Source: a virus
DNA: 64,000 nucleotides
Strand: one strand, 5' to 3'
Virus record (IMG/VR): IMGVR_UViG_3300045988_183796
In this document: piece by piece, positions 36,368 to 56,368 of the stretch
Layout: the number at the start of each line of letters is the position of its first letter
How positions within the stretch are numbered: position 1 is the stretch's first letter
Made by a program: the position numbers and the translations under genes
Notes under the pieces: model-generated
What the model was told of the DNA's origin: nothing
The model's database searches: none
What the model saw: the letters and a program-made list of their open reading frames with translations, nothing else

Positions 36368-36613
36368 ATGAGCATAGCAAAAATCGAAACGGCATCCGGC
36401 GTAACGCTGGTTCTCAACGGCAAAACAGTTTTCGCCTCAGATGATACCTCATACCGGATGCAGGGGTCTAAAATCATCGACGAAAACGGTCGGATTTGTG
36501 GGAACGCCGAGACTATCCGAGATGCCCTGTGCATAGTCTTGGCAAAGCACGGCGGGCTAAAAGGCAAAAATATAAAACATACAAAACCGAAAAAGGTGGT
36601 GAAAACATGGTAG
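36368..36613 (+). CDS. Small protein, family B paralog 1
   Basis: Shares the pattern ...NG...Y..G..L.G.G.VISY.C.S.DEA...V..LYGG with 36607-36789, 36809-37018 and 56159-56368. Confidence 0.5.
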   Translation: MSIAKIETASGVTLVLNGKTVFASDDTSYRMQGSKIIDENGRICGNAETIRDALCIVLAKHGGLKGKNIKHTKPKKVVKTW

Positions 36614-36789
36614 TATACACAAAATCCAGTGTGACGGTGAATTGCTACGGCAATATTATGACGGCATCGGACGGCAAGACCTACAACCTCTGCGGCAGGA
36701 TGTTGACCTGCAGCGGCAAGGTCATTAGCTACAACTGTCAGTCGAAAGACGAAGCACTGGGTACGGTCGTGGGACTGTACGGCGGTTGA
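36607..36789 (+). CDS. Small protein, family B paralog 2
   Basis: ATG overlaps the upstream stop. RBS AAAAGGTGGTG. Ends in ...VGLYGG. Confidence 0.5.
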   Translation: MVVYTKSSVTVNCYGNIMTASDGKTYNLCGRMLTCSGKVISYNCQSKDEALGTVVGLYGG

Positions 36790-36808
36790 AGGTTCTAGGA
36801 GGTACAAT

Positions 36809-37018
36809 ATGCAAACGGTCACGACAAACAACGGTGTAGAACTGCATGTTAAGGGCAGCATCATTTACACAACCGATGCCAAGGCGTTTTGGCGCAGCGG
36901 GAATATGCTGGTCGGAAACGGTACGGTCATCAGCTACCAGTGCCGGTCGATGGATGAGGCGGTCGATATGGTCGCCGCCTTGTACAATGGCAGAAAAATA
37001 GAAGCAGCGCAAGCATAA
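36809..37018 (+). CDS. Small protein, family B paralog 3
   Basis: RBS AGGAGGTACAAT. Contains ...VISYQCRSMDEAVDMVAALYNG. Confidence 0.5.
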   Translation: MQTVTTNNGVELHVKGSIIYTTDAKAFWRSGNMLVGNGTVISYQCRSMDEAVDMVAALYNGRKIEAAQA

Positions 37019-37037
37019 CCATCCTGCAAAAATATAT

Positions 37038-37075
37038 GCCGTTCATCTTTTTGGGTGGACGGCTTTTTGTTTTGT
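37038..37075 (+). terminator. Intrinsic terminator
   Basis: gccgttcatctttttgggtggacggc followed by a T-run. Confidence 0.5.
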
Positions 37076-37106
37076 GAATACAGCGATTCAGTGGCGAAGC
37101 GAGCCG

Positions 37107-37165
37107 ATTTTACCAGCAGTTTGATATTCTGCGGCATGATTTCCAGCAGTTTGATACTCTGTGGG
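37107..37165. repeat. Two tandem copies of a 27-bp element TTT(T/C)ACCAGCAGTTTGATA(T/C)TCTG(C/T)GG
   Basis: A third copy lies at 43312-43339 (ATTTTACCAGCACTTTGATATTTTGTGG). All three are immediately upstream of promoters. Confidence 0.6.
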
Positions 37166-37168
37166 CAG

Positions 37169-37196
37169 TTGCACAGCCGTGCAAATTGCATACAAT
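37169..37196 (+). promoter_or_regulatory. Regulon promoter (variant GTGCAAAT)
   Basis: TTGCAC-agccGTGCAAATtgca-TACAAT. Followed by a 340-nt leader before gene 37538. Confidence 0.5.
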
Positions 37197-37537
37197 GGGA
37201 ATTGGAGAACAAAAAAGCGATGCAAGGATGTATTTGCAATAAATATGGCGGCTGTTTTTGGTATTCACGAAACAACACGAAATTAAACGAAACGCGAAGA
37301 GGATACAAGAAAAGACGAATGAAATCCGGCTGAGGTGGATAATACTTGTGCCGAGTAGTTTAAAGTCCGGACAATGGGACAGCTAAAGTGGTAAAATGAA
37401 ACTAGGAATACCTAAAATCAGATTTAACCGAAAAAACAAAAACCATGAATGAATAATTGGTTGCTAAAAAGTAACCGCTCGCTTTTATACCCAAACCAAC
37501 AAATGACCCAAATCTGTTTAGGAAGGATAGGTACAAA

Positions 37538-39571
37538 ATGGTAAGAAGAAAAGCAAACGACTTGGAAAATCAGATGTCGCTGATGGACATGATGGCATCG
37601 AAAAGCCCCGAATATACCGAAGAAGGCCCGGAAGAACTCTTGGACCCCGGCGAGGACATGGAGGACAGTGAAGGGCAGACGGATAAGCCCTTCAAACTCG
37701 TGGCGAACAAGACCACGAAGGCAAAGGCGAGCATCTCCACGCAGGCGTTGAGTGTTGTGAAGGCGGTATATGCTGATACGGTAGAAACGAATTGGGAAGA
37801 GTTGTTTGACGGGTTCGACAGACTCTATGCTATCACTTTTTCGTCCGGTATCGAGTTCGTGAATAAGGTCATCAACAAGTTCTCGTATGCGGAAGTCGTG
37901 TTCGGATGCGAGAAAATCATCGCCAACGACATTGCTGCCATCATGTCGGTGCAAATCGACAGCGTGCAGCGGCTCGCTAAGTCTAAGTCGGCAGGGAACC
38001 TTGCGAACCGCCTCGATGACGGGTCCTTGCAGCTGTATGTATCGCGAGACACGAAATCGCACGAGAAAATCTTTATCTTGGAGAGCGCTGACCATAAGCG
38101 TGTCCGAGTCATCACCGGCAGTGCGAATATGTCGGCATCGGCGTTTTGCGGCATTCAGCGAGAGAATATCGTCTGCTTCGATGACGAGGCGGCATTTTCG
38201 CATTACAAGGTTCTGTTCGAGACCTTCAAGGAGACCTGCTCCGACAATGTCTCCTATAAGGCAGTCGTGAACACCATGAACCAGGAAGATTATCTGAAAG
38301 AGAACATCAAAGAAGTGCCCGTCTTTCAGTCTATTGAAAAGCAGAAGCTTGTCTTTCTGGAACAGGCACAGCCTGAGGATGAGGTCGAATACGAGATAGC
38401 TGCCGATGTCAAGAAAATGCAGGAACTCGTCAAGCCAATCATGCCTAAGATGCCGGTACAGGCGAATCGTATTGTAGTGGCAGCGGAACCGATGCGCGTT
38501 TTCGGGAAACGATATACCGAGGTGCGGCGTGTGGCAGCTGAGGCAGTTAAGCAGCTCCCAAAATTACATATCGACTATGATGCCGGGACCATGACCTTCA
38601 ACGACGAAAATATCGACCTCAATCCGAATCTCAGCGAGGTGGCAAAGAACATCAAGAGCATCCAGAAGTTCTTCTCAGGCATGGACTACTTTTACGGCGA
38701 TGTCGAACAGGCCAAGAAGGACTACTTCAAGTACATGACCTGGTATCTGGCTACTCCGTTCATGGCGTATCTGCGGTATTTCGCATCGAGGAACAACTAC
38801 GATACGAAGCTGTTCCCGATGTACGGCGTTATATACGGCGACTCAAACGGCGGCAAGACGACCTTTATAAAATTTCTTGTCAAACTCATGTGCGGTGAGA
38901 CCGTTAAGATGAACACGACGGAGGATTTCACAGCCACAAGAATCGACGGCCTCAAACGAGTTTGTGAGGGACTGCCGCTGAACATCGACGACCTCGCCAA
39001 GACCCAGTTTCAGAACCATTCAGAACGGGTAATCAAGAACGATGAATGGGGTATCTCGGACAGGCTCGTGAACTATCCTGCTGTATCTATCACATCGAAT
39101 AAAATTACCTCGCTGACAAAAGACCTCTCGAAACGTGCTATCATCTGTCGAATTGGTGCTAAAATCGACAACGAGCGCGGTGCCAAGAACTCAAAGCGTG
39201 TGAATGAGAGTATGTCGGAGCTGACAACCGCGTTCTATGGCGAATATGTCCGCCGAATGCTTGTTTGCATCGATGAGATGACGACGGAAATGCGTGAAAA
39301 TGCGAATGGCAAGGAATACTTCCCGGATATCTTCCACGCTTCGTCTAGTGTCATTGCAGATATCTTCGAGGCATGCGGAATCGATTTGCCGGACTATGTG
39401 CGTATCCTGTACTATAACGACTATATGGGTGATGAGAGCATTGGTCGTGCTGCAATTGAGAAAATCGAACTGGCATGGCATGGCAGGCTGACCCGAGCAA
39501 GTTCCGGGTTGATAAGAAGCAGAACAGGCTCATTTACTCCTATCCGCCGGATGGACCGTGGTACGAACTGA
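37538..39571 (+). CDS. Fusion protein: N-terminal PLD-like (HxK...GSxN) domain plus C-terminal SF3/D5-type P-loop NTPase
   Basis: HEKIFILESADHKRVRVITGSANMS resembles the PLD HKD motif. Walker A YGDSNGGKTTF, with a downstream SITSN motif-C-like element. RBS GGAAGGATAGG. Confidence 0.65.
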   Translation: MVRRKANDLENQMSLMDMMASKSPEYTEEGPEELLDPGEDMEDSEGQTDKPFKLVANKTTKAKASISTQALSVVKAVYADTVETNWEELFDGFDRLYAITFSSGIEFVNKVINKFSYAEVVFGCEKIIANDIAAIMSVQIDSVQRLAKSKSAGNLANRLDDGSLQLYVSRDTKSHEKIFILESADHKRVRVITGSANMSASAFCGIQRENIVCFDDEAAFSHYKVLFETFKETCSDNVSYKAVVNTMNQEDYLKENIKEVPVFQSIEKQKLVFLEQAQPEDEVEYEIAADVKKMQELVKPIMPKMPVQANRIVVAAEPMRVFGKRYTEVRRVAAEAVKQLPKLHIDYDAGTMTFNDENIDLNPNLSEVAKNIKSIQKFFSGMDYFYGDVEQAKKDYFKYMTWYLATPFMAYLRYFASRNNYDTKLFPMYGVIYGDSNGGKTTFIKFLVKLMCGETVKMNTTEDFTATRIDGLKRVCEGLPLNIDDLAKTQFQNHSERVIKNDEWGISDRLVNYPAVSITSNKITSLTKDLSKRAIICRIGAKIDNERGAKNSKRVNESMSELTTAFYGEYVRRMLVCIDEMTTEMRENANGKEYFPDIFHASSSVIADIFEACGIDLPDYVRILYYNDYMGDESIGRAAIEKIELAWHGRLTRASSGLIRSRTGSFTPIRRMDRGTN

Positions 39572-39759
39572 AATACATTGCAGATGAGCTGCCGAACTCC
39601 CTCGAAGCAGAGATTTCTGGCGGCAACCAGCTTATCATGAACTACGAGCAGGCACAGAAATTGTTCGGCATCAAGTTTCGGCGCTGGCTGGGCATCTTTA
39701 ACCTCTAATATGCATGGCAGGTTCTTTTCGGAGCCTGCCTTCTTATTTCGCAAAAATAG

Positions 39760-39787
39760 TTGCCCATTTGTGCGAATTGCAGACAAT
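39760..39787 (+). promoter_or_regulatory. Regulon promoter
   Basis: TTGCCC-atttGTGCGAATtgca-GACAAT. Confidence 0.55.
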
Positions 39788-39870
39788 CAGAAATAAAGCG
39801 TAAAGCAAAGGAGCTGAGTACCATCTCAAAATTTGCAAGCAAAAAGTTGATTGAGCGAAATTGCAATATC

Positions 39871-40359
39871 ATGAAAGACTACGGCAACGGCTATTCCATT
39901 GAGGAGCTTGCCGCAAAATACAGGTTGAGCGTCCGTACATGCTATCGAGCGTTAGACGACGCGAAACAGGAGGCCAGAATTCAGCTGGCACAGGTTGAGG
40001 ATGCCAGAAAAGCTGAAATCCTTGCGGCATACAAGAACAGTGTCCCTCTCAAGGAAATGATTGCGAAATTCAACGTGACAGAAGGATATTGCGGCATGGT
40101 TGCCAACGATGCGGGCCTGACTGAAAACCGCAGAAACGAGCGCATCAAAATTAGACAAAGACCGCGCAACGAGAATATCTTTCGAGAATACGAGAGTGGC
40201 GTGCCGGTGCAGAAACTATCCGAAAAGTATCAGCTCTCGGTTCCTGGTATTTACAAGGTTATCCAGCGAGTGAGAAGGCAAAAGGAGGCGATGGAGTTTT
40301 GCAATGGATTGTTAAGCAAACCAAATCGAAAGGATATGAGTTCACCTTCGATATCGTGA
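39871..40359 (+). CDS. HTH-domain protein (repeated resolvase/sigma-region-4-like HTH units)
   Basis: Repeated motifs YSIEELAAKYRLSVRTCYRAL, PLKEMIAKFNVTEGYC and VQKLSEKYQLSVPGIYKVI. The start is uncertain; a non-ATG start further upstream near RBS AAAGGAG is possible. Confidence 0.45.
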   Translation: MKDYGNGYSIEELAAKYRLSVRTCYRALDDAKQEARIQLAQVEDARKAEILAAYKNSVPLKEMIAKFNVTEGYCGMVANDAGLTENRRNERIKIRQRPRNENIFREYESGVPVQKLSEKYQLSVPGIYKVIQRVRRQKEAMEFCNGLLSKPNRKDMSSPSIS

Positions 40360-40937
40360 AAGGCAAGGCCGTTATCGGGCAGGCACACTATATTCCGAAA
40401 GTGCTGCGGCAAGGTTATGGCATCCGGCTGAATGATTCCAAGTTCCTGCTGCAATACATGCCAGCTGGTGACGCAAGGGCGTACATGCGCGGCATCAACA
40501 CGAAAGATATTCTGAGACACCCTTTTGCTATCTGTGAGAACAACCGCACGGTAGGCGAGATTTCCGTCATCCATACAAAAACCGGATTCCTCCAAGGATA
40601 CAATTCTATCACCATGCAGCTGTATGGCGAGGAATACCAGAGCTACAAAATTGGTTTTGGAAAAGAAGGAGTATGCTGCCCTGTATTCCTTTGCGGACAG
40701 CAAATCGCCCAAATCAATAAGAGCGCGGTGGTCAAGGATAATCTGGATGAATACCTGATTTACGCAGTGAATGAAAAGGCACTGATGCCGTCCGTCGTGT
40801 TCGCCATTTATATCGATGGGATATACTACGCAAACCGCGGCGTGTATACGAATGACGCGACAACTATTAAGTGCGAGTACTGCCTGAATGAGGATGTCCT
40901 GTCTCACTATGACCCGAACTTCATCAAGGGGTTGTAA
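40299..40937 (+). CDS. Hypothetical protein
   Basis: Probable TTG start after AAGGAGG. Overlaps the end of the upstream gene. Confidence 0.45.
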   Translation: MQWIVKQTKSKGYEFTFDIVKGKAVIGQAHYIPKVLRQGYGIRLNDSKFLLQYMPAGDARAYMRGINTKDILRHPFAICENNRTVGEISVIHTKTGFLQGYNSITMQLYGEEYQSYKIGFGKEGVCCPVFLCGQQIAQINKSAVVKDNLDEYLIYAVNEKALMPSVVFAIYIDGIYYANRGVYTNDATTIKCEYCLNEDVLSHYDPNFIKGL

Positions 40938-40970
40938 TTCCAACGCCTGGCATTCACAGACAATATCATG

Positions 40971-40998
40971 TTGCGAAACTGTGCGAATCGCAGACAAT
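40971..40998 (+). promoter_or_regulatory. Regulon promoter
   Basis: TTGCGA-aactGTGCGAATcgca-GACAAT. Confidence 0.55.
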
Positions 40999-41034
40999 TA
41001 AGAACAGATGAAGTACAAAAGCTGAGGTTACACA

Positions 41035-41631
41035 ATGAGCTACGAACCTATCATAACACCTGGTAATAACTTTTTTCTTGTCTCAACAGAATACAAAGAG
41101 AGCTGCTTCGCCTGGTGCCGCAAGCAAATTAGAGCGACACTGAGGACCTGTCAGGGACGAGTCATCATCATTGATGCAACGGGCGAGTACGCGGACTTGG
41201 CGCTTGAGCATGACAGATTGATTCGAGAGAAAATTCCGTCCATTATTTATCGGTATAAGCTGGTGGACGGGAAACCGTATATTGCTCATGTCATTGAAGT
41301 TGATACGGAAGCAAATGAAGCACCGCACCTGATTGTATACGATATCAGCCGGACCATAATCACCAGCTGGAAGGTCGGCGTAGAGGCAATTGATAAAATC
41401 CTGCAATCCTATGCCGTGATGCAAGACAGTGAAATCGCGTGGTTGTATGTTCCGCTGGACTTATATACCAATGTCAAGCCCGAAAGCGAATCCTGGAACA
41501 TTCTGGAACGAACCATCAAGGGCAATGAAGGAAAGCTCATGACAGTGCTAACGACTCGAAAATTCACCATCGGCATGGTTCAGCGCTGTTTGCATATGAC
41601 AAAAAATAAACTTTTGGAGGATAGCAAATGA
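41035..41631 (+). CDS. Hypothetical protein
   Basis: RBS GCTGAGGTTACACA. Coding-like composition. Confidence 0.55.
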   Translation: MSYEPIITPGNNFFLVSTEYKESCFAWCRKQIRATLRTCQGRVIIIDATGEYADLALEHDRLIREKIPSIIYRYKLVDGKPYIAHVIEVDTEANEAPHLIVYDISRTIITSWKVGVEAIDKILQSYAVMQDSEIAWLYVPLDLYTNVKPESESWNILERTIKGNEGKLMTVLTTRKFTIGMVQRCLHMTKNKLLEDSK

Positions 41632-42515
41632 CCAAGGAACAGCTGAGAATCGCATTGACGGCGAATGCCGTTACCAAACAGACCCGTAACCATTTTGGGT
41701 TCAGTGACCCGTGTGGGAAGACTCTGGAAGAGTACAACAAATCTTCAATGCTTTGCTGTGTGACGGCAGCGCAGAAAATGAACACGCCGGGTTTCGAGCG
41801 TGTCCTTGCTGCACAGATTTTCCCCTGCTTCACCATCGGCTGCTGGAACCAGACGAAGACGGTCTGTGATTTTGACTACGAGTTCCAGAAAATTCTTATG
41901 GATACGGATGACATGGCGATTCATCAGGATATCCTGCAGCGGCTTCCGATTCGTGATTTCTTTATCCCGGTGTATGACAGCTACGACTACAACGGTATGT
42001 TCGTGCATGTGGAATTCGAAGAGAAAGAGAAGACCACTGCTTTCGGCATCGTTCTTGTCGGCCCGGCCAAAGGCAGCCATGATGATTTCACGTTCCTGAC
42101 TCTGCCTGCCTGGGCCAAAGAAAACCAGAGTTTGACGGAAGCAACTCGGAGCACGAAAGAATACCTGGAAAAGGCAGCCGGGCAGCGGCAGGTAAATGGT
42201 ATCAGCGTACCGGCTGTGATGGAAGCAGTTCCTTCGGTCTTTGACGGCGGCACACCTTATGTTCGCCTGGCAATCCTGTGTGCCTACTATCTTGCCAGTA
42301 AGAACCCTGATGTCCGCTTGGAAACTTCCAAAAAGCGTGACCGCCCGGTATTCGTGTTTCAGGGAAAGGCACAGCGAATCAACGTCAAGACATATACCGT
42401 TGGTGAGAATGCGGCCAAAGAATACAAAAAGAATGGGGAAGGCAAAACTCCCCGCTGGCAGCATTACTGGTGCGGCAATGGCCGGGAACGCCGGGAATGC
42501 AAGTTTATTTACTGA
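41628..42515 (+). CDS. Hypothetical protein
   Basis: ATGA overlap with the upstream gene. RBS TGGAGGATAGCAA. Confidence 0.55.
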   Translation: MTKEQLRIALTANAVTKQTRNHFGFSDPCGKTLEEYNKSSMLCCVTAAQKMNTPGFERVLAAQIFPCFTIGCWNQTKTVCDFDYEFQKILMDTDDMAIHQDILQRLPIRDFFIPVYDSYDYNGMFVHVEFEEKEKTTAFGIVLVGPAKGSHDDFTFLTLPAWAKENQSLTEATRSTKEYLEKAAGQRQVNGISVPAVMEAVPSVFDGGTPYVRLAILCAYYLASKNPDVRLETSKKRDRPVFVFQGKAQRINVKTYTVGENAAKEYKKNGEGKTPRWQHYWCGNGRERRECKFIY

Positions 42516-42533
42516 TGGCGGTGAGGGTGAATC

Positions 42534-43241
42534 ATGGCTCCCCATACTTATCAGGACCCGATTGGGTTCTATGAATGGTTCGATGACCTTCCTTATGCTA
42601 TCCAGGATAGTATTCTGAAACACCTGCCGCATATGGAAGGCGAGGAATGGCTCATTGTCATTATCCTTGCAGCTCTTCTTCTGATGATTCTGGTTTCAGC
42701 GTATCTGTGCTATGCAAGGCATAATGTCAGAAAGACGAGTGAACGACTCAACGCTCTGAAAGAACTGAATGCTGCAACAAAGTTTATACCGGTCGAGACG
42801 CAGTACCGATACTACCTACGCTCTGATACGAAACTGGAATACGAGGAGTTTTCACTCCCGAAATTCTTCCGCCGCGAAGTGAGAGAAAACTTTAAGCTGT
42901 TCAACACTCTTCTTGGCAATGCTCGGGCAAACACGATATTTTATGAAACATATGCCCTCGAAATCCAGGAACTCCCGGATTGGACAGAATCGGATGACGA
43001 TTGCGGGCGGCATATCCCGTTCTTCCTCTACCACAACATCGAGAAAGAGTTGTACGATGAAACTGTCCTGGACTGCCCTGTAACGAACCCTGAGTTTGTC
43101 TGTACGAAAAGTTATCTGCCCAAAGATGCCAAAGAGCCGATTGAGACGGAAGAGACCTATACACTGGAGGAACTGGAAGAGTACATACGCCGCTTGAAGG
43201 TTGCAGCCGAGGTTAAGAAAAGCGGCCAGAGTGCAAGCTGA
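42534..43241 (+). CDS. Hypothetical membrane protein (single TM helix)
   Basis: TM helix LIVIILAALLLMILVSAYL. RBS GGTGAGGGTGAA. Confidence 0.5.
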   Translation: MAPHTYQDPIGFYEWFDDLPYAIQDSILKHLPHMEGEEWLIVIILAALLLMILVSAYLCYARHNVRKTSERLNALKELNAATKFIPVETQYRYYLRSDTKLEYEEFSLPKFFRREVRENFKLFNTLLGNARANTIFYETYALEIQELPDWTESDDDCGRHIPFFLYHNIEKELYDETVLDCPVTNPEFVCTKSYLPKDAKEPIETEETYTLEELEEYIRRLKVAAEVKKSGQSAS

Positions 43242-43339
43242 AAAAAGTCAGCAGCCATAAGCAAGAGGCAGGGCCCTGTGTTTCATGGTTCCAGAACGTC
43301 TTCCCACCTTAATTTTACCAGCACTTTGATATTTTGTGG

Positions 43340-43405
43340 TTATTGACAAACGGCGCAAAAGGTGCTTGGGTTAAAAGCCCTTGCAAAAAGTGCGATATCC
43401 ATATA
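43340..43405 (+). promoter_or_regulatory. sigma70-like promoter (TTGCAA ... TATAAT) preceded by a copy of the 27-bp element
   Basis: ttgcaaaaagtgcgatatccatataataaa, with ATTTTACCAGCACTTTGATATTTTGTGG just upstream. Confidence 0.45.
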
Positions 43406-43437
43406 ATAAATTGAAATTCAAAAGGGAGATACACATT

Positions 43438-44046
43438 ATGAGTGAACAGAAAGAAAATGCTCAGCTCGAAGCTTATCGGAAGCTCGTTGAAGATTTCAAG
43501 CGCTTTGTCAGCTCTGAGATTCGAACGGAGGAAAACAGTTACCGAATTGTGGACATGACTTCCGAAGATGCCGAAATCGATGACCCGAGCGTTCCGGTGA
43601 CTCAACTGGAGGACGAAAAAGCAGAGAAGCTTGCCGGTATTTGCATGGACCTGTCCAATGCCACGCTGTGGCTCTACTACAACCGTGACAAATTTGCAAA
43701 CGTCGAGTTCATGCCCCTGACTGATGAAACTCTGAAAGAATACCAGAAGCAGGCTCAGAATGCTCTGAATGAACCGAAGAGCCCTCTGTATCTGAAATCC
43801 TGGTATCAGCTCATTGAAATGTTGAGTCAGGAATGTATCCCGCAGCGCTACGAGGACGACGGTCAGCGATATACAGACGTCTATGTGAACACCTATATGC
43901 TCATGTACCTGACCATGACCCGACTCAAGAACGGCGGAACCTTTACACGCCTTGCAAACGGGCAGGGAAGCGATGCTGTGAAAATCACGACCATCGCAAT
44001 GTACTACTTCTCCAGCCTTTTGACGGTTCTCTGCACTGAATATTAA
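43438..44046 (+). CDS. Hypothetical protein
   Basis: RBS AAAAGGGAGATACACATT. Confidence 0.55.
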   Translation: MSEQKENAQLEAYRKLVEDFKRFVSSEIRTEENSYRIVDMTSEDAEIDDPSVPVTQLEDEKAEKLAGICMDLSNATLWLYYNRDKFANVEFMPLTDETLKEYQKQAQNALNEPKSPLYLKSWYQLIEMLSQECIPQRYEDDGQRYTDVYVNTYMLMYLTMTRLKNGGTFTRLANGQGSDAVKITTIAMYYFSSLLTVLCTEY

Positions 44047-44056
44047 GAAATTTTTT

Positions 44057-44094
44057 CCCGTGTGAGCAGCGACGCTCATGCGGGAATTTTTTTG
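44057..44094. terminator. Intrinsic terminator
   Basis: cccgtgtgagcagcgacgctcatgcggg followed by a T-run. Confidence 0.7.
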
Positions 44095-44104
44095 TGATTT
44101 TCTA

Positions 44105-44132
44105 TTGTCAATCTGTGCGAATTACGTACAAT
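44105..44132 (+). promoter_or_regulatory. Regulon promoter
   Basis: TTGTCA-atctGTGCGAATtacg-TACAAT. Confidence 0.6.
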
Positions 44133-47216: not shown

Positions 47217-47251
47217 AAGTGTCGCCTGAGTTAGAAATTAGGAGAATTTGC

Positions 47252-47704
47252 ATGATTCGAGTTAAGAAAGAGAACCACCGTAGTTGGTTCATGAGCAACT
47301 ATTATCCTTGCGAATTTGTGATGAATGGGATTCGCTACAAGAACGCTGAAGCAGCGTTTCAGAGTCACAAGGTCCCACTGGAAGAGCGCAGACAGTTTGC
47401 GGACATGCCACCGGCTTCTGCCAAGCGCTTTGGCCGCAATGTAGCTATCCCCGCAAACTGGGGTGAGGCTCGGGACGACGTGATGCGCCGCGTGGTGATG
47501 GCCAAGTTCGAGCAGAATGAGGACCTCAAACAGCGCCTCCTCGAAACGGGTACGCAGCCTATTGAGGAAGACACGACCAGCTGGCATGACAATTACTGGG
47601 GCAACTGCCACTGCCCGAAATGCCAGAACATCCCAGGTCAAAACCGGCTTGGGATTATTCTGATGGAAACGAGGGACAAGCTAAAAAAACAAACGAGTAA
47701 ATAA
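47252..47704 (+). CDS. NADAR (YbiA/DUF1768) family ADP-ribosyl N-glycosidase
   Basis: SNYYPCEF, YKNAEAAFQSHK, WHDNYWGNC and GQNRLGIILMETR match NADAR signatures. Confidence 0.75.
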   Translation: MIRVKKENHRSWFMSNYYPCEFVMNGIRYKNAEAAFQSHKVPLEERRQFADMPPASAKRFGRNVAIPANWGEARDDVMRRVVMAKFEQNEDLKQRLLETGTQPIEEDTTSWHDNYWGNCHCPKCQNIPGQNRLGIILMETRDKLKKQTSK

Positions 47705-48265: not shown

Positions 48266-50152
48266 TCACTGAACAACTTCGCCAAGGTCATTTGCGTATT
48301 TCGGGTCACACATCATGAAATAGTTGACGGGGCCGTACTCCAGACCGAGCTCCTGCGCGTATGCCTTGATGACTTCCAGAACGTCCTCTTTCTTGAGATT
48401 ATACTTGGAATGCAGACGGGCAAACTCTTTGTCAGAGACAGAAACGCAAGAGCAATTTTCTGCATCGGTTTCTTTGCTGCCCAGCATCCCGTCAAAGATG
48501 TCCTGCCCTGCACAGAGAATCGTCTCATTGTTCATCGCATAGGCGATAACGGAAGCCTTACAGTCAAAGTCGCTGTTTTCCACAAGGAAATCCTCAGGGC
48601 GGCCGTGACGTTCAACAACGTTTTCATAGATGTCCCGGAGTTCGATAGGAGCAGAAGGAGCGGTCAGAGCTGCTTTATGAAGGCGCATGAATTCCACAAA
48701 CTTTTCATTCGAGAGGGTATCGGTATAAAAGCCGATGCCGGAAACGCGAACCTTCACTTCGCTGGCAAAGTAATCGTCAATTTTGGAGACGATTTTCTGC
48801 TGAACCCGCTTGTACGCTTCCTGAACATTGGAAGCCGTGTAAAATACCGGGAACTTCATGATGTCGATTCCCTCCGGCAGACTCGCGTCATAGGCCGCAT
48901 CAATGCCGCCTCGCAGCGCCGGAACCGCGTCATGAAGCTCTTTCACAGAAGAAATGTATCCGGTAATGTACAGCTCATCGTTTTTGCTGTAATGCCCGAT
49001 AAGTCCCACATAGAGGGTCTGCATCAGCATCCGCTTGAAGCTGAACCAACATAGACGAATGGGTAGAATGACATTAGCAGCCGTACCTTCCGCACGATAG
49101 GTGCCGGGGGCAGAGACCTTTTCCAGCAGAATCTGGTCGTTCTTGTCACCGTATTTTTCCTTGAAAAGAGCTTGAAGAATTTCAGTGGACGAAAGAGGAG
49201 TGGACATTGGAATCGTTTCATTCAGAAAAGAGAGGAATGCATCCACATTGTCTTTCTGCCATGCGTCATTAGACATGCTTGCACGCTGCATAGAGAGCTT
49301 GTCTTTCCTATCATCGGGCAGGGGCTCATACCCACAGGCGATACGAAGTTCGTTCTCCGTGACAGCATCCGTTGCACTTGCAATTTTTTTGATGGTGTTC
49401 TCGGTCGGCTGAGCTTTTGCGTTGCCATTCACGAGGCTGCTGATATACCCACGAGTCAGCCCCGCTTGAAACGCAAACTTACCCTGTGTGCGGGTTCCGA
49501 TGGCTTTTTTGACCAGCGATGCCAGCCTTTGAAAGTCGGGCTCTTTGGGAAAGGTGGCCTCCGCATCCTTATTGCTGTTCTTTTCAAGTACCGACTTGTC
49601 CCAACCGGTGACAAGAGAATACCCAATATCCTTCAAGGATTGATAGGCAACCCCGTTCTGGTCAAGAGCCGGGGAGTATGTACCGCTGTTATCTTCCAGC
49701 TGCTCTACTGCCTCACGCACCATCCTTGCTTCGTTCATCAGGATGACGTCCGGGGCTTCAAGCCGGGCAAGACTCTTGTACCGATTATTGAGGCGCTCGA
49801 CTCGTGCGGCCAATGCAGTGATGTTGGCAACTTGGTCTTCCGTTGCATGGGCAGAGATATCTGCACCAAGTTCAAAATGGTTTAGTGCAGGAATATCCAC
49901 GCCTTTGCTCTTGGCGAATTCCACAATGGCTTCCGCGCCATAGAAACGCTTCTCATGGGCTGCGACAACTTTCGTTATCGTGTCGGCCGAGTTGTCCAGC
50001 TCAAGCACTTCACCTTTTCCGGCATCCTCGACATAACACCTGGTGTTGGTGAGAAAGCCTTTCAAAAAATCAGCATCCACATCCAGCTTCTTAGCGATGC
50101 CGGGCAGCTGCTTATAGAAAATCACGCGCGTGGCGAGGTTAACAGAAATCAT
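48266..50152 (-). CDS. Large hypothetical protein with an internal XRE-like HTH
   Basis: GLTRGYISSLVNG resembles a Cro/C1 HTH. 628 aa. Confidence 0.5.
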   Translation of the reverse strand: MISVNLATRVIFYKQLPGIAKKLDVDADFLKGFLTNTRCYVEDAGKGEVLELDNSADTITKVVAAHEKRFYGAEAIVEFAKSKGVDIPALNHFELGADISAHATEDQVANITALAARVERLNNRYKSLARLEAPDVILMNEARMVREAVEQLEDNSGTYSPALDQNGVAYQSLKDIGYSLVTGWDKSVLEKNSNKDAEATFPKEPDFQRLASLVKKAIGTRTQGKFAFQAGLTRGYISSLVNGNAKAQPTENTIKKIASATDAVTENELRIACGYEPLPDDRKDKLSMQRASMSNDAWQKDNVDAFLSFLNETIPMSTPLSSTEILQALFKEKYGDKNDQILLEKVSAPGTYRAEGTAANVILPIRLCWFSFKRMLMQTLYVGLIGHYSKNDELYITGYISSVKELHDAVPALRGGIDAAYDASLPEGIDIMKFPVFYTASNVQEAYKRVQQKIVSKIDDYFASEVKVRVSGIGFYTDTLSNEKFVEFMRLHKAALTAPSAPIELRDIYENVVERHGRPEDFLVENSDFDCKASVIAYAMNNETILCAGQDIFDGMLGSKETDAENCSCVSVSDKEFARLHSKYNLKKEDVLEVIKAYAQELGLEYGPVNYFMMCDPKYANDLGEVVQ

Positions 50153-50389
50153 GGTGTACTCCTTTCAAATATGTCATTAGCTGTACAATGCTGTCATCTT
50201 CTGTAATTATAATAGCACATCCCGCACCAAAAAGCAAGCATGAATTTACAAAAAATGACAAGAAAATACACAAGATGACATATTTGGGCAAAGCAGTTGA
50301 TTTCCGAGTCTTTGCTACCCCGTGATGGAACATGCCCTGTGCGTCTTGTCTATGCCACAGTTTTGCCACGATTTTGCCATGATTTTGCC

Positions 50390-50418
50390 TTGTGCATCCG
50401 TGCGAATTGGATATGATA
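50390..50418 (+). promoter_or_regulatory. Regulon promoter preceded by three GATTTTGCC direct repeats
   Basis: TTGTGC-atccGTGCGAATtgga-TATGAT. Repeats at about 50360-50390. Confidence 0.5.
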
Positions 50419-50441
50419 GGAAATATAAGATAAATAAGTGT

Positions 50442-50523
50442 AGCCGCAGAGATTTCGATTTCTGCGGCTCATTTCTTTTGTGGTCCCCATGCGGATGAAA
50501 ATGTCTGCGTGGGGATTTTTTAT
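50442..50523 (+). terminator. Two tandem leader hairpins with T-runs between the promoter and the methyltransferase gene
   Basis: agccgcagagatttcgatttctgcggct followed by catttctttt, then tccccatgcggatgaaaatgtctgcgtgggga followed by tttttt. Confidence 0.5.
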
Positions 50524-50537
50524 TTGGAGATATAGAC

Positions 50538-51632
50538 ATGGCAAAGAATGAGAATCTGCACAAGGCAAAGGATGCCAAGAACGACGAGTTCTATACGCTG
50601 TTGAGCAGTATATCCGAAGAACTCAGACACTACAAGCAGCATTTCGCTGCAAAAATTGTATTCTGCAACTGCGATGACCCGACATGGTCTGCTTTCTGGC
50701 GGTATTTCCACCTGAACTTTGCAGAACTTGGCTTAAAGAAGCTGATTTCCACGCACTATGACCGTACAGAACCCACCTACAAGATGGAGTATGAGGGCGG
50801 AGACGACAATGATGTGGAGGTCGGTGTGAAGACCCCGCTGGAAGGCAATGGTGATTTCCGCAGTCAAGAATGCCTTAATTTGCTGGATGAGTGCGATATC
50901 GTGGTAACCAACCCGCCCTTCAGCCTTTTTAGAGAATTCGTCGGGACGTTGATGGAACACGATAAGAAGTTCATTATTTGGGGCAACAACAATGCCATTA
51001 CATACAAAGAGTTCTTTCCACTTTTGAAAGAAAACAAGGTGTGGCTTGGTTATACAGCGAATAAGACGTGTACATTTAGAGTTGCCGAAGGCTATCGCTT
51101 CGACGAAAAACTTACTGCACAATTCAATGACGGGCACAAGTATGGGAAAGTGCCCGCCATTTCTATTTTTACCAACCTCGACATCCAGAAGCGCCACGAA
51201 AAGCTGATTCTTTGGCAGAGATACTATGACGATAACGGGAATCCGTTGCCGGATGCGGAGGAGAGATACCCCCACTACGATAATTACGATGCCATCAATG
51301 TAGACAGGGTTGCTGATATTCCGGTGGATTATCGAGACGTAATGGGTGTGCCGATTACGTTCTTGGATAAGTATAATCCGAAAGAATTTGAAATTTTAGG
51401 CTACACGGGCGGTTTGGGGTGGAATAACCAAAACAATATAAAAACCACCAAAGAGTATTTGGAATGCAAACAGCACAACCCAGACGGGAGTATTACAAGT
51501 GGGGGCAAGGTAAATACTGGCGCGGCATTGTGCTTTAGTGAAATTCCTGCACAAAGATACTATTCGGCATCAAATTGCGACGGATATCTACTCAGAACAT
51601 ACGGACGAATTCTTATTTGCAAGACGAAATGA
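50538..51632 (+). CDS. N6-adenine DNA methyltransferase (orphan; NPPF motif IV)
   Basis: VVTNPPFSLF catalytic motif. N-terminal DEFYT element, as in EcoRI-methylase-like phage/plasmid methyltransferases. Confidence 0.75.
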   Translation: MAKNENLHKAKDAKNDEFYTLLSSISEELRHYKQHFAAKIVFCNCDDPTWSAFWRYFHLNFAELGLKKLISTHYDRTEPTYKMEYEGGDDNDVEVGVKTPLEGNGDFRSQECLNLLDECDIVVTNPPFSLFREFVGTLMEHDKKFIIWGNNNAITYKEFFPLLKENKVWLGYTANKTCTFRVAEGYRFDEKLTAQFNDGHKYGKVPAISIFTNLDIQKRHEKLILWQRYYDDNGNPLPDAEERYPHYDNYDAINVDRVADIPVDYRDVMGVPITFLDKYNPKEFEILGYTGGLGWNNQNNIKTTKEYLECKQHNPDGSITSGGKVNTGAALCFSEIPAQRYYSASNCDGYLLRTYGRILICKTK

Positions 51633-51646
51633 ATGGTGGAATTGGA

Positions 51647-52456
51647 ATGGATATAAAATGGGAAATCGCCTATTATTTAATTGAAGCGAAAAAAGCTGTC
51701 GATTCTTTATGGTATATATCAAACCATGTCGGCGAATTATATGATGTCAGGCAATTATGCAACGATAGACGAAGTCAGTATTACATTAACACCTGTGCCG
51801 TCTTGGATAAAACTGTGTGTAATGGTAAAGGAAAGAAAAAGGAATTAACGCAAAGCGACAATGTTATTGCACACATCTATTACGAAAGAGATAAGCACTA
51901 TGCTCACAAAGATAGTGATTATAGACAAAACTATCCGTGGACAAATTTGGAGCAAGAAGCGTTTGCATTACAAGAGGAATTGCGCCACATTTCAAAAAAA
52001 TGTAAGGATTATCTTCCACAAGTGCTTACACTCGACTTTGTATGTTATGACAGCGTCCAATATCGATATATCAATAAAATTGGCAAAAGTGATGAAGAAA
52101 AAATAAAGAATGAAAAGTATCCTTTTTACAATAAGCCGTTTATAGTAAATGGAAAGACAATTAAAAAGAAACCTATATACGATATTGAAACCATAAAAAG
52201 CATCCCTACTGATAAGCATAATGAATATTGCGTTATTATAGAAAGTGGCTTGACATTTGAAGAAGATTTGCAAAATAGGCAAGATGCCTTAATTAAATTA
52301 AACGTCCTATGTGGTGGAAGTCTTTGGTATGCAAGAAACGAAACCATGTGGAATGAATGTCTCAGGTTACGAGAATTGGGAATATTTGATGCTTTTGGGA
52401 AAATAAATCGTGAAAGAATTAAAGAGGAGATAAAGAAAGGAAATAAAATCCTATGA
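51647..52456 (+). CDS. Hypothetical protein encoded on an AT-rich insert
   Basis: GC drops visibly (about 32-35%) between about 51650 and 52450. Start is 51629 or 51647. Confidence 0.45.
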   Translation: MDIKWEIAYYLIEAKKAVDSLWYISNHVGELYDVRQLCNDRRSQYYINTCAVLDKTVCNGKGKKKELTQSDNVIAHIYYERDKHYAHKDSDYRQNYPWTNLEQEAFALQEELRHISKKCKDYLPQVLTLDFVCYDSVQYRYINKIGKSDEEKIKNEKYPFYNKPFIVNGKTIKKKPIYDIETIKSIPTDKHNEYCVIIESGLTFEEDLQNRQDALIKLNVLCGGSLWYARNETMWNECLRLRELGIFDAFGKINRERIKEEIKKGNKIL

Positions 52457-53589
52457 AAATTACAGAAACGAAAATCAAGGTATTCGACCTTGTCGAGAAT
52501 TACAAGGACAACGGTGATGGCGGTGTCTTTGGCTACAATGACCGTCTTACGATTCGCCCGTCCTTCCAGCGTGAATTTATATATGGGGAGAAGCAGCGTA
52601 CCGCTGTTATTGATTCCGTAATGAACGGATTCCCTTTGAACGTTATGTACTGGTCCAAGACAGGAGATGACACCTACGAGGTTCTTGATGGACAACAACG
52701 TACTATCTCTATTGCTCAGTACATCAACAAGGATTTTCCTGTCAAAGTCAACGGCAATGATAAGTTCTTCCAGAACCTGACCAACGAAGAAAAGCAGGCA
52801 ATTCTGGACTACGAGCTGACGGTTTATGTCTGCGAAGGCACCGAGGCTGAGAAGCTTGAATGGTTTAAGCGCATCAATATCGCTGGTGAGGTTTTGACTC
52901 CGCAGGAACTTCTGAACGCTACATACACAGGACCGTGGCTGGCCGATGCAAAGAACTACTTCTCAAAGCGCAACTGCGTGGCTGTTAAGATGGCAGATGG
53001 CTATTTGAAAGGCAACCCGATTCGACAGGAACTGCTGGAAAAGGCACTGATTTGGATTGCGGACCGGGATGGTCTGGAATCCGGGCAGATGTACATGGCG
53101 ATTCACCAGCATGACGAGGACGCCAATGACCTCTGGCTTTACTTCCAGTCGGTAATCAACTGGGCCAAAATGCTGTTCCCGTCTAAGCGGAAGGGGATTA
53201 CGGATGCACAGGCATGGGGACTGCTCTACAACAAGTACCATTCGAAGCAGTACAACAGCAACGCTCTGGAAGCAGACATCAAGAAGCTCGTGATGGACGA
53301 TGATGTGACGAAGAAAGCAGGCATCGTTCCGTACATCCTGTCTGACCGTACATGGCGTGACGAAAAGCATCTGTCTCTGCGTGCGTTTACTGAGTCTCAG
53401 AAGCTCCGTGCCTATGAGCGGCAGGGACATAAGTGTCCGCTGTGCGTTGCGAACGGTATCAACACCGAGTATGCCTATGAGGATATGGAAGGTGACCACA
53501 TCATTCCTTGGAGCAAGGGTGGGCATACCACGGATGACAATTTGCAGATGCTGTGCAAGAAGTGTAATTCGGCAAAGTCGGATATGTGA
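52453..53589 (+). CDS. DUF262 (ParB/Srx-like, DGQQR) plus C-terminal HNH endonuclease: type IV restriction / defence-like nuclease
   Basis: VLDGQQRT motif. C-terminal HKCPLC...GDHIIPWSKGG...NLQMLCKKCN HNH motif. Confidence 0.75.
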   Translation: MKITETKIKVFDLVENYKDNGDGGVFGYNDRLTIRPSFQREFIYGEKQRTAVIDSVMNGFPLNVMYWSKTGDDTYEVLDGQQRTISIAQYINKDFPVKVNGNDKFFQNLTNEEKQAILDYELTVYVCEGTEAEKLEWFKRINIAGEVLTPQELLNATYTGPWLADAKNYFSKRNCVAVKMADGYLKGNPIRQELLEKALIWIADRDGLESGQMYMAIHQHDEDANDLWLYFQSVINWAKMLFPSKRKGITDAQAWGLLYNKYHSKQYNSNALEADIKKLVMDDDVTKKAGIVPYILSDRTWRDEKHLSLRAFTESQKLRAYERQGHKCPLCVANGINTEYAYEDMEGDHIIPWSKGGHTTDDNLQMLCKKCNSAKSDM

Positions 53590-53604
53590 TGGTGGGAGCA
53601 TATC

Positions 53605-54063
53605 ATGAAAAAATATTGCTATTTCATGTTCGGTATGTTCACCGGCACAGACGGAAACAAATACAACATCTGCATCCCGTCGCCGTTTGTCCGAGACTCA
53701 AAAGCTGAAGCTATGAAGGATGAAAATTTTGCTTACCGCTTTTTGACAATCGACTCGGCCGGACCTATGCTGGTCGCTTTTGCAAACGAGCACTTCAAAC
53801 CCATGAACAACGGCAAAATGCAGTTGAAATGCTGGGTGGATAAGGATGTTGCCGGGAACTATACCTTTGAAGAATTCAAGAAAAATGGCGGGTATATTCG
53901 ACAACTGAAGCCGAGTAGCAAGGGAAAATATGTAACTGATGAGTCGGACTTTATTGATGCTGATAAGGCATTTGCCGATGTATTCCCCAATGTGGAGCAA
54001 GGGAAGCTCTACTATGTGGATGATGAGGCTTATTTCATCGGGAATGTGACGAAAATCAAATAA
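53605..54063 (+). CDS. Hypothetical protein
   Basis: RBS GGTGGGAGCATATC. Confidence 0.5.
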   Translation: MKKYCYFMFGMFTGTDGNKYNICIPSPFVRDSKAEAMKDENFAYRFLTIDSAGPMLVAFANEHFKPMNNGKMQLKCWVDKDVAGNYTFEEFKKNGGYIRQLKPSSKGKYVTDESDFIDADKAFADVFPNVEQGKLYYVDDEAYFIGNVTKIK

Positions 54064-54085
54064 TATAAAGCTGGAGGGACCCTTT

Positions 54086-54442
54086 ATGGTAGTTAAAGGA
54101 GAAGCTTGTTTTGTTTCTATGCAGTTGAGCATGAAATCTACTGACACCACGAGCAAAGGAATTATCATGCCAGATTTTCTTTGCTCTAGTGCAGATTTTT
54201 CGCTTCCTTACAATCCAGAGATTATCGACAAATTTGTCTATGACGACAAAATGATTTCTCACATGGTCCACGAATTGTACAGTCTCGTGAAGTGCCTACG
54301 CCCTGATAAATTGGATGACAAAGAAAAATGCCTGGTACTGGATATTGACGTGGATGATGAATTCTATGATTTCTACGATGTATATGTAACTATGAGCAAA
54401 GATACTTGTACCTACAGGGTCGAAGAAGATGATGACTACTGA
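54086..54442 (+). CDS. Acidic small protein, family A paralog 1
   Basis: VHELYSLVKCLRPDKLDDKEKCLVLDIDVDD aligns with paralogs at 54707 and 56697. Start is 54086 or 54122. Confidence 0.5.
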   Translation: MVVKGEACFVSMQLSMKSTDTTSKGIIMPDFLCSSADFSLPYNPEIIDKFVYDDKMISHMVHELYSLVKCLRPDKLDDKEKCLVLDIDVDDEFYDFYDVYVTMSKDTCTYRVEEDDDY

Positions 54443-54630
54443 TATACTGTGCTCTCTCATCGAACGATGTAACGTTCTGAACAGCGCTCATGGCGCTGCT
54501 TGGGCTGACAGGCACCGGAGCTTATCACTAAAACCTTGAAAAAAGAAGTGGAACGCAACAATATAGAAAATTATTAAAAAATATTTTTTTGAGAAATCCG
54601 ACCTAGCCGGATTCCACGCTACTGGACCGA

Positions 54631-54658
54631 TTGACCGTCCTTGCGAACTGCGTAGAAT
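54631..54658 (+). promoter_or_regulatory. Regulon promoter (variant TGCGAAC)
   Basis: TTGACC-gtccTTGCGAACtgcg-TAGAAT. Confidence 0.5.
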
Positions 54659-54706
54659 TAAAGGTGTAAGAAGAAACCCGTAACACACACAAAGGGGAAT
54701 ACCAAC

Positions 54707-55027
54707 ATGTATACTTGCACCTTAAAATTCGAAGCTACCGCGTTCCGCGAGGATGATGACAACGAGCTCGAAAGCATCTCTGCTTCCATCAGCGTCCCCG
54801 TAAAAGGTGATGATGAAACGGTTGAAGAAACGCTGAGTAATGAGAAGCTGATTGTCCGCACTGTTGTAGCGTTGTACGAAATCGTTAGCTACCTGCGCCC
54901 CAACTGGCTGGACAACGAGGCTACCAGCCTGACGCTGGATATTTCCATCGATGGCAGTGAAGTTCAGTCGCGTGGCGGCCTTGTTACCATGAAACCGGAA
55001 GGCTTTATCTTTAACCTGGATGATTAA
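54707..55027 (+). CDS. Acidic small protein, family A paralog 2
   Basis: RBS AAAGGGGAATACCAAC. About 40% identity to 56697-57017. Confidence 0.55.
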   Translation: MYTCTLKFEATAFREDDDNELESISASISVPVKGDDETVEETLSNEKLIVRTVVALYEIVSYLRPNWLDNEATSLTLDISIDGSEVQSRGGLVTMKPEGFIFNLDD

Positions 55028-55040
55028 GTAAAGTTGATTG

Positions 55041-55078
55041 GGAGTCTTACCTGCAAAAGCGGGCAAGACTCCTTTTTT
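55041..55078 (+). terminator. Intrinsic terminator
   Basis: ggagtcttacctgcaaaagcgggcaagactcc followed by a T-run. Confidence 0.65.
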
Positions 55079-55094
55079 ATAAGCAGGTGAACAT

Positions 55095-55982
55095 ATGAAC
55101 ATTGCGTTTTATGACGGTATACTTTTGCAAGTGAACTTGCATAACAGCAAAGCCACCGTTCTTTCGAAACACAAAATTGGAACCGACACCATAGATTTCT
55201 ACAACTACTTCACAAAACACCGCCCGTCTCCTGAAGAGCCGCTTTTGGAGTTGTCGAACTTTCCGGCAAATGAAGCCATCAAAATCATTTCCGGGCAGCC
55301 CCTTGTCAATCAATTCTTTTCGGATTACATCGATACTAGCCAGGAAAACAATCAGGCCACTGCAAAAGAAGCTTTGGCCTATACTCACAATCTTGTCCAG
55401 AATGTTTTTTCTGATATAGATGCTGCTTTGGCGATGCATTCTGGTGTTAATGCTAAGGGATTCGAAGGTAACCAGATGCTTTTCGGAGCTGACCAGTTCA
55501 CGATGGTCTTTGCTCTGTTGGGCAATCGAATTGTTCAGGTCTACACGGTAAAAGACCTGCGTGAATATCTCCTGCTTGATTTATACTACGCCAATTTTGT
55601 GCCGGATTTCTCAAAAAAGATTGCTATTTGCCCTTGCTGCGGAAAGACTTTCCGTTTGAGTCAGCGGAACAAGGTATACTGCAGCAAGGCTTGCAAAGAT
55701 AAAAGCATTCGGGCAAACAACAAGAAAGACCCATACTATTCAAAATACCGATACCTGCAGCAATACAACAACCGGCAACTCAACAAGCAGCGCAGGCGTA
55801 TGGCAGATTCATCGCTACAAGCGCAGAAGCTGCGAGATGCCTATACCACCTGGAACAAATGGGCACGCTCTGAATACAAGCAGGTGAGTGGCATCTCAGA
55901 CCACACGCAGCGGGTGAATGTTGAAGAGTTCGATGGGCGCTTGAAAGAGCGGTGGAAGGCTCTAACATGGGACCTGAATTAA
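55095..55982 (+). CDS. Hypothetical protein with a C-terminal zinc ribbon and a basic tail
   Basis: CPCCGKTF...YCSKACKDK motif. RBS AAGCAGGTGAAC. Confidence 0.55.
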   Translation: MNIAFYDGILLQVNLHNSKATVLSKHKIGTDTIDFYNYFTKHRPSPEEPLLELSNFPANEAIKIISGQPLVNQFFSDYIDTSQENNQATAKEALAYTHNLVQNVFSDIDAALAMHSGVNAKGFEGNQMLFGADQFTMVFALLGNRIVQVYTVKDLREYLLLDLYYANFVPDFSKKIAICPCCGKTFRLSQRNKVYCSKACKDKSIRANNKKDPYYSKYRYLQQYNNRQLNKQRRRMADSSLQAQKLRDAYTTWNKWARSEYKQVSGISDHTQRVNVEEFDGRLKERWKALTWDLN

Positions 55983-56003
55983 AGTGCTCAGCATGAAGAA
56001 CGA

Positions 56004-56040
56004 CCTACCTGCCATAAACAGGTGGGGCTTTTTCTTTTTG
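56004..56040 (+). terminator. Intrinsic terminator
   Basis: acctgccataaacaggtgggg followed by cttttt. Confidence 0.55.
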
Positions 56041-56105
56041 TGTTGACAGCAGGCTAAAGAGGAGAAAACCGCCCCAATGGAATGCTCATTCCAGAACGTC
56101 AGAAA

Positions 56106-56133
56106 TTGACTCATTATGCGATTTGCCTAGAAT
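56106..56133 (+). promoter_or_regulatory. Regulon promoter (variant ATGCGATT)
   Basis: TTGACT-cattATGCGATTtgcc-TAGAAT. Confidence 0.45.
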
Positions 56134-56158
56134 GAAAAGAAATGAGGCAGAAAGTGAG

Positions 56159-56368
56159 ATGCGTAATATGTTTGCAATGTGCCGAGACGGTTCAGCCGTT
56201 CATGTCTTCGGAAATACCATCAGCGTCAGTGGCCGGGGCATGAGCGAAACCTACGTCCTCTGCGGGAACATGCTGACCGGTCCGCACGGGTTCCGGTCGA
56301 TGAACTGCAGAAGTATCGATGAGGCATTTTGCCTGGTGTGCGGCGTACATGGCGGTAAGAGCTGGTGA
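56159..56368 (+). CDS. Small protein, family B paralog 4
   Basis: ...YVLCGNMLTGPHGFRSMNCRSIDEAFCLVCGVHGG matches family B. Start is uncertain (56159, 56168 or 56177). Confidence 0.4.
   Translation: MRNMFAMCRDGSAVHVFGNTISVSGRGMSETYVLCGNMLTGPHGFRSMNCRSIDEAFCLVCGVHGGKSW

Follow-up and report, generated by a model that had tools for sequence, protein, structure and literature searches.

We have found that a 64,000-nucleotide stretch of DNA recorded as viral (IMG/VR record IMGVR_UViG_3300045988_183796; the window hereafter means this stretch at its full length) encodes four members of an undescribed family of small proteins, which we refer to as paralogs A, B, C and D. Three of the genes lie in tandem and the fourth stands alone, each is maintained by strong purifying selection, and the proteins might, as we tentatively suppose, act as binders of host or rival-element proteins. 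The four open reading frames (ORFs) are as follows.

36368..36613, + strand: paralog A, 81 amino acids (aa); the family domain occupies residues 1-63 and is followed by a Lys-rich tail of 18 aa with a terminal Trp
36607..36789, + strand: paralog B, 60 aa; ribosome-binding site (RBS) GGTGGTG; 7-nt overlap with the end of A
36809..37018, + strand: paralog C, 69 aa; perfect AGGAGG RBS; start 19 nt past B
56159..56368, + strand: paralog D, 69 aa; stand-alone, and nearest of the four to the family consensus

The initial annotation of this DNA had placed four paralogous ORFs at these positions, with A, B and C in tandem and a translational overlap between A and B, and our analysis bears out both the arrangement and the paralogy. 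The start codon of B (ATG, 36607) lies within the last codons of A, whose stop codon is the TAG at 36611-36613. The start of A at 36368 is also correct; we considered a 107-aa form of A beginning at an ATG at 36290, the choice of the gene caller, and rejected it, since at most orthologous loci the upstream region contains stops in frame or is unrelated sequence, and conservation upstream of the A start is limited to about 30 nt that include the RBS. For D, an ATG at 56168 is an alternative possible start. In pairwise phmmer comparisons using a six-frame translation of the window, B matched C (3e-10), B matched D (1e-7) and C matched D (6e-5); the matches of A to the other paralogs were marginal (0.01-0.04), yet they were always the best non-self matches of A. 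A profile made independently, from distant family members alone and leaving out both the window sequences and A-type sequences, detected D at 4.6e-23, B at 7e-20, C at 1.2e-17 and A at 1.5e-11, with the next ORF at 0.34. The similarity is therefore homology, A included, and not low complexity or chance, and the low-complexity artefact that the initial annotation had named as the result that would undo its claim does not account for it. Neither the six-frame phmmer search nor the independent profile revealed a fifth copy in the window. The paralogs are old and long diverged: they are 20-40% identical to one another and their synonymous sites are saturated.

Paralogs A-D are coding genes, each under strong purifying selection among orthologs. 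Among 68 related loci gathered from metagenomes and IMG/VR, the pooled Nei-Gojobori (NG86) ratio of non-synonymous to synonymous substitution (dN/dS) between orthologs came to 0.17 across 28 distinct sequences of A, 0.08 across 21 of B and 0.07 across 30 of C, while D and its ortholog in the related locus L094 are separated by 24.5 synonymous and 5.5 non-synonymous differences (dN/dS 0.03). For the A, B and C orthologs, two shifted sense frames and two antisense frames gave dN/dS values of 1-3.6, and the antisense frame that shares third positions with the annotated frame gave 0.13-0.25, always higher than the annotated frame. The diversification under selection that had been suggested from the tandem arrangement is thus not seen at a measurable level within any of the paralogs. 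The shortness of the ORFs, and a 192-aa ORF on the minus strand that overlaps the array, might be taken to mean that these are chance ORFs in non-coding DNA; we regard the probability of this as negligible, since the substitution pattern is frame-specific and already refutes it, the RBSs are good, 113 cluster representatives share a conserved full-length profile, and a fold is predicted with confidence. The 192-aa ORF is itself spurious.

The family to which A-D belong is undescribed, and its typical member is a solitary protein of 60-66 aa. A word-indexed search returned 183 close relatives, every one of them unnamed, and when 1.84 billion cluster representatives were searched exhaustively with HMMER, only 113 matched at E ≤ 1e-3 and 43 at E ≤ 1e-10; one subtype, listed in 1,650 blocks of an assembly collection, has almost no annotation. 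No match to the family was found in Pfam-A, NCBIfam, PHROGs or PADLOC, nor a sequence match in the PDB, and among the INPHARED phages and PLSDB plasmids there was no match either by megablast of the 20 kb around the locus or by tblastn of D and of a consensus-like member. When a degenerate DNA pattern for EAxGIVxGx[HY]GG was run against a genome collection it gave 23 matches, only 2 of them true members, both in metagenome-assembled genomes of Clostridia; with a protein query, pattern matches in the same collection were not confirmed by tblastn, and the alignments were too variable for pattern design.

The consensus of the family is ..DG..V...GN.I.(C)SDG..Y.L.G..L.GP.G..S.N..S..EA.GIV.G.HGG[RK][RK][FYWL]-end, and its near-invariant columns are turn glycines, a single Tyr, a single Leu and a single Ala, and the GG at the end. 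The most conserved feature is the C-terminal motif h-G-G-[RK]-[RK]-aromatic, in which the glycines are present in 45/45 and 44/45 sequences. From their nature in the alignment, the conserved columns look structural and not catalytic. Paralog C is the sole subtype with ..YNG where the others have ..GG. Paralog B of the window ends exactly at ..LYGG, whereas its orthologs end ..LYGGRRF; the conserved basic-aromatic end of the motif is thus truncated in the window and in the relative L002, nearly all other orthologs adding RRF. The shared block ..VISY.C.S.DEA...V..LYGG by which the initial annotation had recognised the paralogs spans the family's last strand, its helix and the capping GG, but the description of the proteins as Cys-containing does not extend to the family, as only 17-19 of 45 sequences have Cys at the three Cys-rich columns, and individual proteins have 0-5 Cys. 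A metal site or disulfide is unlikely given that these columns are not conserved, and a DNA mimic is unlikely given that the proteins are not acidic. The isoelectric point (pI) of whole A is 9.75 and that of its core 6.5.

An AlphaFold2 model of C (m092e4e8b082a), made from a 20-sequence alignment, had a mean predicted local distance difference test score (pLDDT) of 92.4 and a predicted template modelling score (pTM) of 0.79. The predicted fold is a six-strand beta-meander (strands 2-6, 11-15, 18-21, 26-30, 33-36 and 39-42) packed by one C-terminal helix (48-58), with the GG turn at the end. The model of a natural A-B fusion, P0001, contains two copies of the same topology (pLDDT 72, pTM 0.45) and no confident interface was seen between them; four of its five models had pLDDT ≤ 55, and its alignment, which paired A-types with the first half of the fusion and B-types with its second half, comprised only 8 sequences, since MAFFT stacks the subtypes when given more. 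We detect no fold relative, and A-D are cytoplasmic, single-domain proteins in which signal peptides and transmembrane segments are absent. Weak profile matches (E 1e-4 to 1e-5) were obtained to secreted proteins with many GNTIxGSDGxxY units, which suggests that the N-terminal part of the family is made of such beta-hairpin units. The secreted GNT(I/V)xGSDG(T/S)xY multi-repeat proteins (P0207, P0210, P0213 and P0216 among them), which have no Pfam family, share with A-D a hairpin unit of about 11 residues, ..GNxIxxSDGxxYxLxGNxL.., that builds the N-terminal two thirds of the family domain; they differ in having signal peptides and many repeats, and in lacking the C-terminal helix and the GG motif, and the likeness may be one of convergent turn composition.

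The genes for paralogs A, B and C come last in an operon that is delimited by a ribozyme upstream and a terminator downstream, in the order ribozyme, 129-aa gene, 86-aa gene, A, B, C, terminator. The remaining features of this operon, and those around D, are as follows.

35573..35642, + strand: self-cleaving ribozyme resembling that of hepatitis delta virus (HDV), RF02682 (HDV-F-prausnitzii); cmscan score 60.4 bits (gathering score 44) over the full model, positions 1-74
35666..36055, + strand: ORF for a 129-aa coiled-coil-like protein, first gene of the operon, called in all relatives
36061..36321, + strand: 86-aa protein, second gene of the operon, called in relatives; coordinates obtained through the offset between L002 and the window
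37038..37073, + strand: strong hairpin resembling an intrinsic terminator at the operon end; 11 pairs, 6 of them GC, then the T-run TTTTTGTTTT
56004-56026: terminator-like hairpin of the gene upstream of D
56106..56133, + strand: promoter-like site before D, TTGACT-16-TAGAAT, from a consensus scan only

The ribozyme lies 27 nt past a gene with a VWA domain and 24 nt ahead of the 129-aa gene, and its position is kept in the relatives L001, L005, L019, L030 and L065. HDV-like ribozymes cleave at their own 5′ end, and, as we infer from this known chemistry, cleavage probably frees the operon RNA from that of the flotillin, 281-aa and VWA genes upstream. In its full-length match above the gathering score the ribozyme is like that of Faecalibacterium prausnitzii; it differs in its setting, having here, on a mobile element, a VWA gene on one side and small accessory genes on the other, whereas the described F. 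prausnitzii ribozyme is upstream of chromosomal glmM (PMC6765202). Neither the 129-aa nor the 86-aa protein has a match in Pfam, PHROG, NCBIfam or PADLOC; the L009 lineage has a homolog of the former (70% identity) that does not adjoin the small-protein genes. About 460 nt of non-coding DNA separate the hairpin at the operon end from the next gene at 37538. Paralog D is monocistronic and would be transcribed from its putative own promoter. We also note a HEARO RNA (RF02033, 91 bits; 30881-31141, + strand) directly 5′ of the flotillin/Band_7 gene (31199-32842), which has no adjoining HNH ORF and recurs in L001 (4595-4855) and L005 (4594-4854); a protein with RRXRR and HNH domains (12412-13605) is encoded 18 kb from it.

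The array is plastic. A-B-C is intact in 44 of the 68 loci, B is truncated in 4, and only the 3′ half of C is kept in 9 of 46 IMG/VR loci, with at least three different upstream junctions. Chimeras of B with C (P0005 and P0034), chimeras or fusions of A with B (P0130, P0001 and P0002) and fusions that join A, B or C to the VWA gene or to the 129-aa gene (P0126, P0235, P0090 and P0184) also occur. Together the chimeras, fusions and deletions indicate that the array is reshaped by recombination between paralogs and by deletion, and that it can be lost. Across L056-L064 there are at least three independent deletions ending in the middle of C (codons ~28-37), which looks like a recurrent breakpoint; lost with them are the ribozyme, both the 129-aa and the 86-aa gene, all of A and B, and C in its 5′ half.

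The element that carries the family appears to be conjugative. The window encodes a coupling protein of a type IV secretion system (T4CP; T4SS for the system; 40-1611) and a VirB4-like ATPase (4778-7447), and no phage structural proteins, and no recognisable capsid or terminase, were found in it. In PLSDB the nearest relatives of the VirB4-like protein are on a 247-kb plasmid of Subdoligranulum variabile (38% identity) and on a Vescimonas plasmid; both genera belong to the Oscillospiraceae. Contigs that carry the family are repeatedly 220-300 kb long, and one member is labelled "Clostridiales bacterium". The carriers are, in our reading, large conjugative elements (~200-300 kb) from gut Clostridia, probably of the Oscillospiraceae, with the family lying in their accessory region. 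In IMG/VR, 46 contigs from elements of this type (26-188 kb; L019-L064) are classed as viral, a label that we regard as a classification issue, the alternative being a phage-plasmid.

Around A-B-C and D the window contains a series of genes of anti-defence or related type, all on the same strand as the T4CP and VirB4 genes, together with a ResIII helicase.

21360-22661: umuC-like polymerase
37538-39571: PLD-like nuclease
41628-42515: AcrVA2-like protein (PF26125), 4.6 kb downstream of C
47219-47704: NADAR protein, ~10 kb downstream of C
50538-51632: EcoRI-like adenine methylase, 4.5 kb upstream of D
52453-53589: GmrSD_N-HNH protein

The family is thus clustered with known anti-defence genes (AcrVA2-like, NADAR and EcoRI-like methylase), and the situation is similar in L009-13, L018 and L101. 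In the sister element L009-13 the array consists of A and C only, overlapping by 8 nt, with AcrVA2-like and NADAR genes within 6 kb; in L009 some 7.5 kb separate the A-C pair, which lies behind an unrelated 296-aa gene, from the 129-aa gene homolog. The distant solitary members in L018, L076, L097 and L101 have an EcoRI-like methylase gene, a GmrSD-HNH gene or both within 5 kb, whereas the solitary member in L099 is near Band_7, YpsA and IS605 genes, those of L014-16 are near Mrr_cat and many small ORFs, and that of L017 is near RNase HII and pilus genes. No constant partner gene travels with the family, and the upstream genes differ between the lineages examined.

We note several further features of these neighbourhoods. 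Two paralogous 106-aa proteins (54707-55027 and 56697-57017, + strand; 43% identical, E 7e-29) bracket D, with a 295-aa gene between the first of them and D in the window, and the order 106-aa gene, D, 106-aa gene also occurs in L094-L098. We compared the 295-aa gene with the 296-aa gene of L009 and rejected a relationship between them. A 293-aa gene of the window (51575-52456) overlaps the end of the methylase gene; what comes after the methylase gene in L018 and L101 is only a short ORF of 40-84 aa. In L094 (9662-10237) and L096 (7516-8091) a Cas5d-like gene, identified by a weak Pfam match, follows a RlaP-like nucleotidyltransferase gene ~4.5 kb downstream of D; in the matching stretch of the window (61.1-64 kb) we found no long + strand ORF and no repeat or CRISPR array.

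What might proteins of this kind do? They are too small, and have too few conserved polar residues, none of them catalytic-looking, for enzymes to be likely, which leaves stoichiometric binding as the most likely mode of action. The family is accessory, multi-copy and individually conserved amid genes of anti-defence or establishment type, and we therefore favour, tentatively, the reading that A-D bind and thereby neutralise or modulate host or rival-element proteins in an establishment or anti-defence role. Each paralog would be specialised for its own host or rival-element target, and one target per paralog would account for four diverged copies each kept under purifying selection. In such a scheme the HDV-like ribozyme would cut the RNA free of the flotillin-VWA genes, A-B-C would be translated from the 3′ portion of a polycistronic RNA, with A and B translationally coupled, and D would come from its own promoter. 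The small anti-defence effectors that the initial annotation had offered as one explanation are plausible given the AcrVA2-like, NADAR, EcoRI-like methylase and nuclease genes nearby, and the dispensable and plastic array, the lack of a constant neighbour and the recurrence of anti-defence-type neighbours in diverged relatives support binding of this kind. Conjugative elements are known to cluster anti-defence genes, methylases and small genes of unknown function in islands, often bounded by umu-like genes (PMC11541004). A-D resemble the small anti-defence proteins of such islands (Samuel and Burstein, Nature 2024; PMC11541004) in their length of 60-80 aa, in having no enzymatic motifs, in being co-directional with methylase, AcrVA2-like, NADAR and nuclease genes on a T4SS-bearing element with a umuC-like gene in the region, and in their patchy presence and frequent deletion; they differ in having no homology or fold similarity to the described members. 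They also differ from anti-CRISPR (Acr) loci, as the operon has no helix-turn-helix (HTH) regulator of the anti-CRISPR-associated (Aca) type, the nearest HTH/Mor gene (39760-40359) being 2.7 kb away, past the terminator and a 677-aa gene.

Several considerations weigh against an anti-defence or establishment role. The case is one of guilt by association alone, and the family resembles no known anti-defence protein in sequence or in fold. A housekeeping role in the element would also be consistent with strong purifying selection and with an A-B-C order that is nearly constant (44/68 loci). All of the contexts come from one broad clade, so that the recurring neighbours may reflect inherited synteny rather than functional linkage. 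Finally, neither a relaxase nor an oriT was identified in the 64-kb window, and placement of the genes in a leading region is thus unsupported.

A competing explanation is that the proteins are subunits internal to the element, in which A, B and C make up a hetero-oligomer and D a separate homo-oligomer, serving for example as a nucleic-acid-binding, regulatory or maintenance adaptor with the Lys-rich tail of A contacting DNA or RNA. We consider this unlikely, if clearly the strongest of the competing explanations. The coupling of A to B, and of A to C through the 8-nt overlap in the L009 lineage, would suit it, as would the A-B-C order preserved in 44 loci, the strong purifying selection, the basic tail that raises the pI of A from 6.5 in the core to 9.75, and the natural A-B fusions P0001 and P0002. 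However, the fusions are singletons that may be defective, the poorly scoring models of P0001 offer no confident interface, scans of family libraries revealed no HTH, ribbon-helix-helix (RHH) or other known DNA-binding signature, most members elsewhere are solitary genes of 60-66 aa, and deletion variants that have neither A nor B persist.

The initial annotation had also raised immunity proteins, and we consider it improbable that the paralogs are an array of antitoxins or "orphan" immunity proteins neutralising toxins of the element or of its competitors. Small soluble proteins encoded by diverged tandem paralogs, with unequal-crossover chimeras and a copy number that varies by unequal recombination, are typical of the immunity arrays of polymorphic toxins, and a PIN/PhdYeFM toxin-antitoxin pair is present ~6 kb upstream in the relative L002. 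Nevertheless, no cognate toxin gene accompanies the family and no toxin domain (LXG, Rhs, CdiA or nuclease-toxin) adjoins it in any lineage examined, the immediate upstream genes are unrelated between lineages, a solitary copy is the commonest arrangement, and there is no match to a known immunity family in Pfam or NCBIfam. Far less probable again is that A-D are processed or conjugated through a C-terminal Gly-Gly, as ubiquitin-like modifiers or as precursors of the double-glycine leader type; the strong conservation of the terminal GG and the ending of B of the window exactly at GG would be in keeping with this, but the predicted fold is a six-strand meander with a helix and not a beta-grasp, none of the neighbourhoods examined contains an E1/ThiF, JAB or C39-peptidase/ABC exporter gene, the roughly three residues past GG are far too short for a core peptide, and the C subtype has NG. 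The probability that is left over falls to something else.

Taken further, binding of host or rival-element proteins by A-D raises the doubtful prospect that they are a new class of anti-defence protein with a fold unseen in solved structures, whose paralogs would block different immune systems of Oscillospiraceae and whose early expression from the transcript of a gut megaplasmid would be released by the ribozyme. Less probably, the conserved basic C-terminus would serve as a T4SS export signal, such that the proteins would enter the recipient together with the DNA. As far as the evidence goes, what is new here lies at the level of the protein family; as a biological kind, A-D add another family to the small accessory proteins that mobile elements carry. 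Human metagenomes are rich in large conjugative elements from Faecalibacterium-like gut bacteria. With a structure model of high confidence, and with their starts and operon defined, A-D are a clean set of candidates that can be screened against restriction, CRISPR and other defences. Should they prove not to be inhibitors, the family would be another conserved hypothetical of a mobile element. If they are inhibitors, they would extend the anti-defence repertoire by a new fold and could assist in making hosts that are hard to manipulate genetically tractable.

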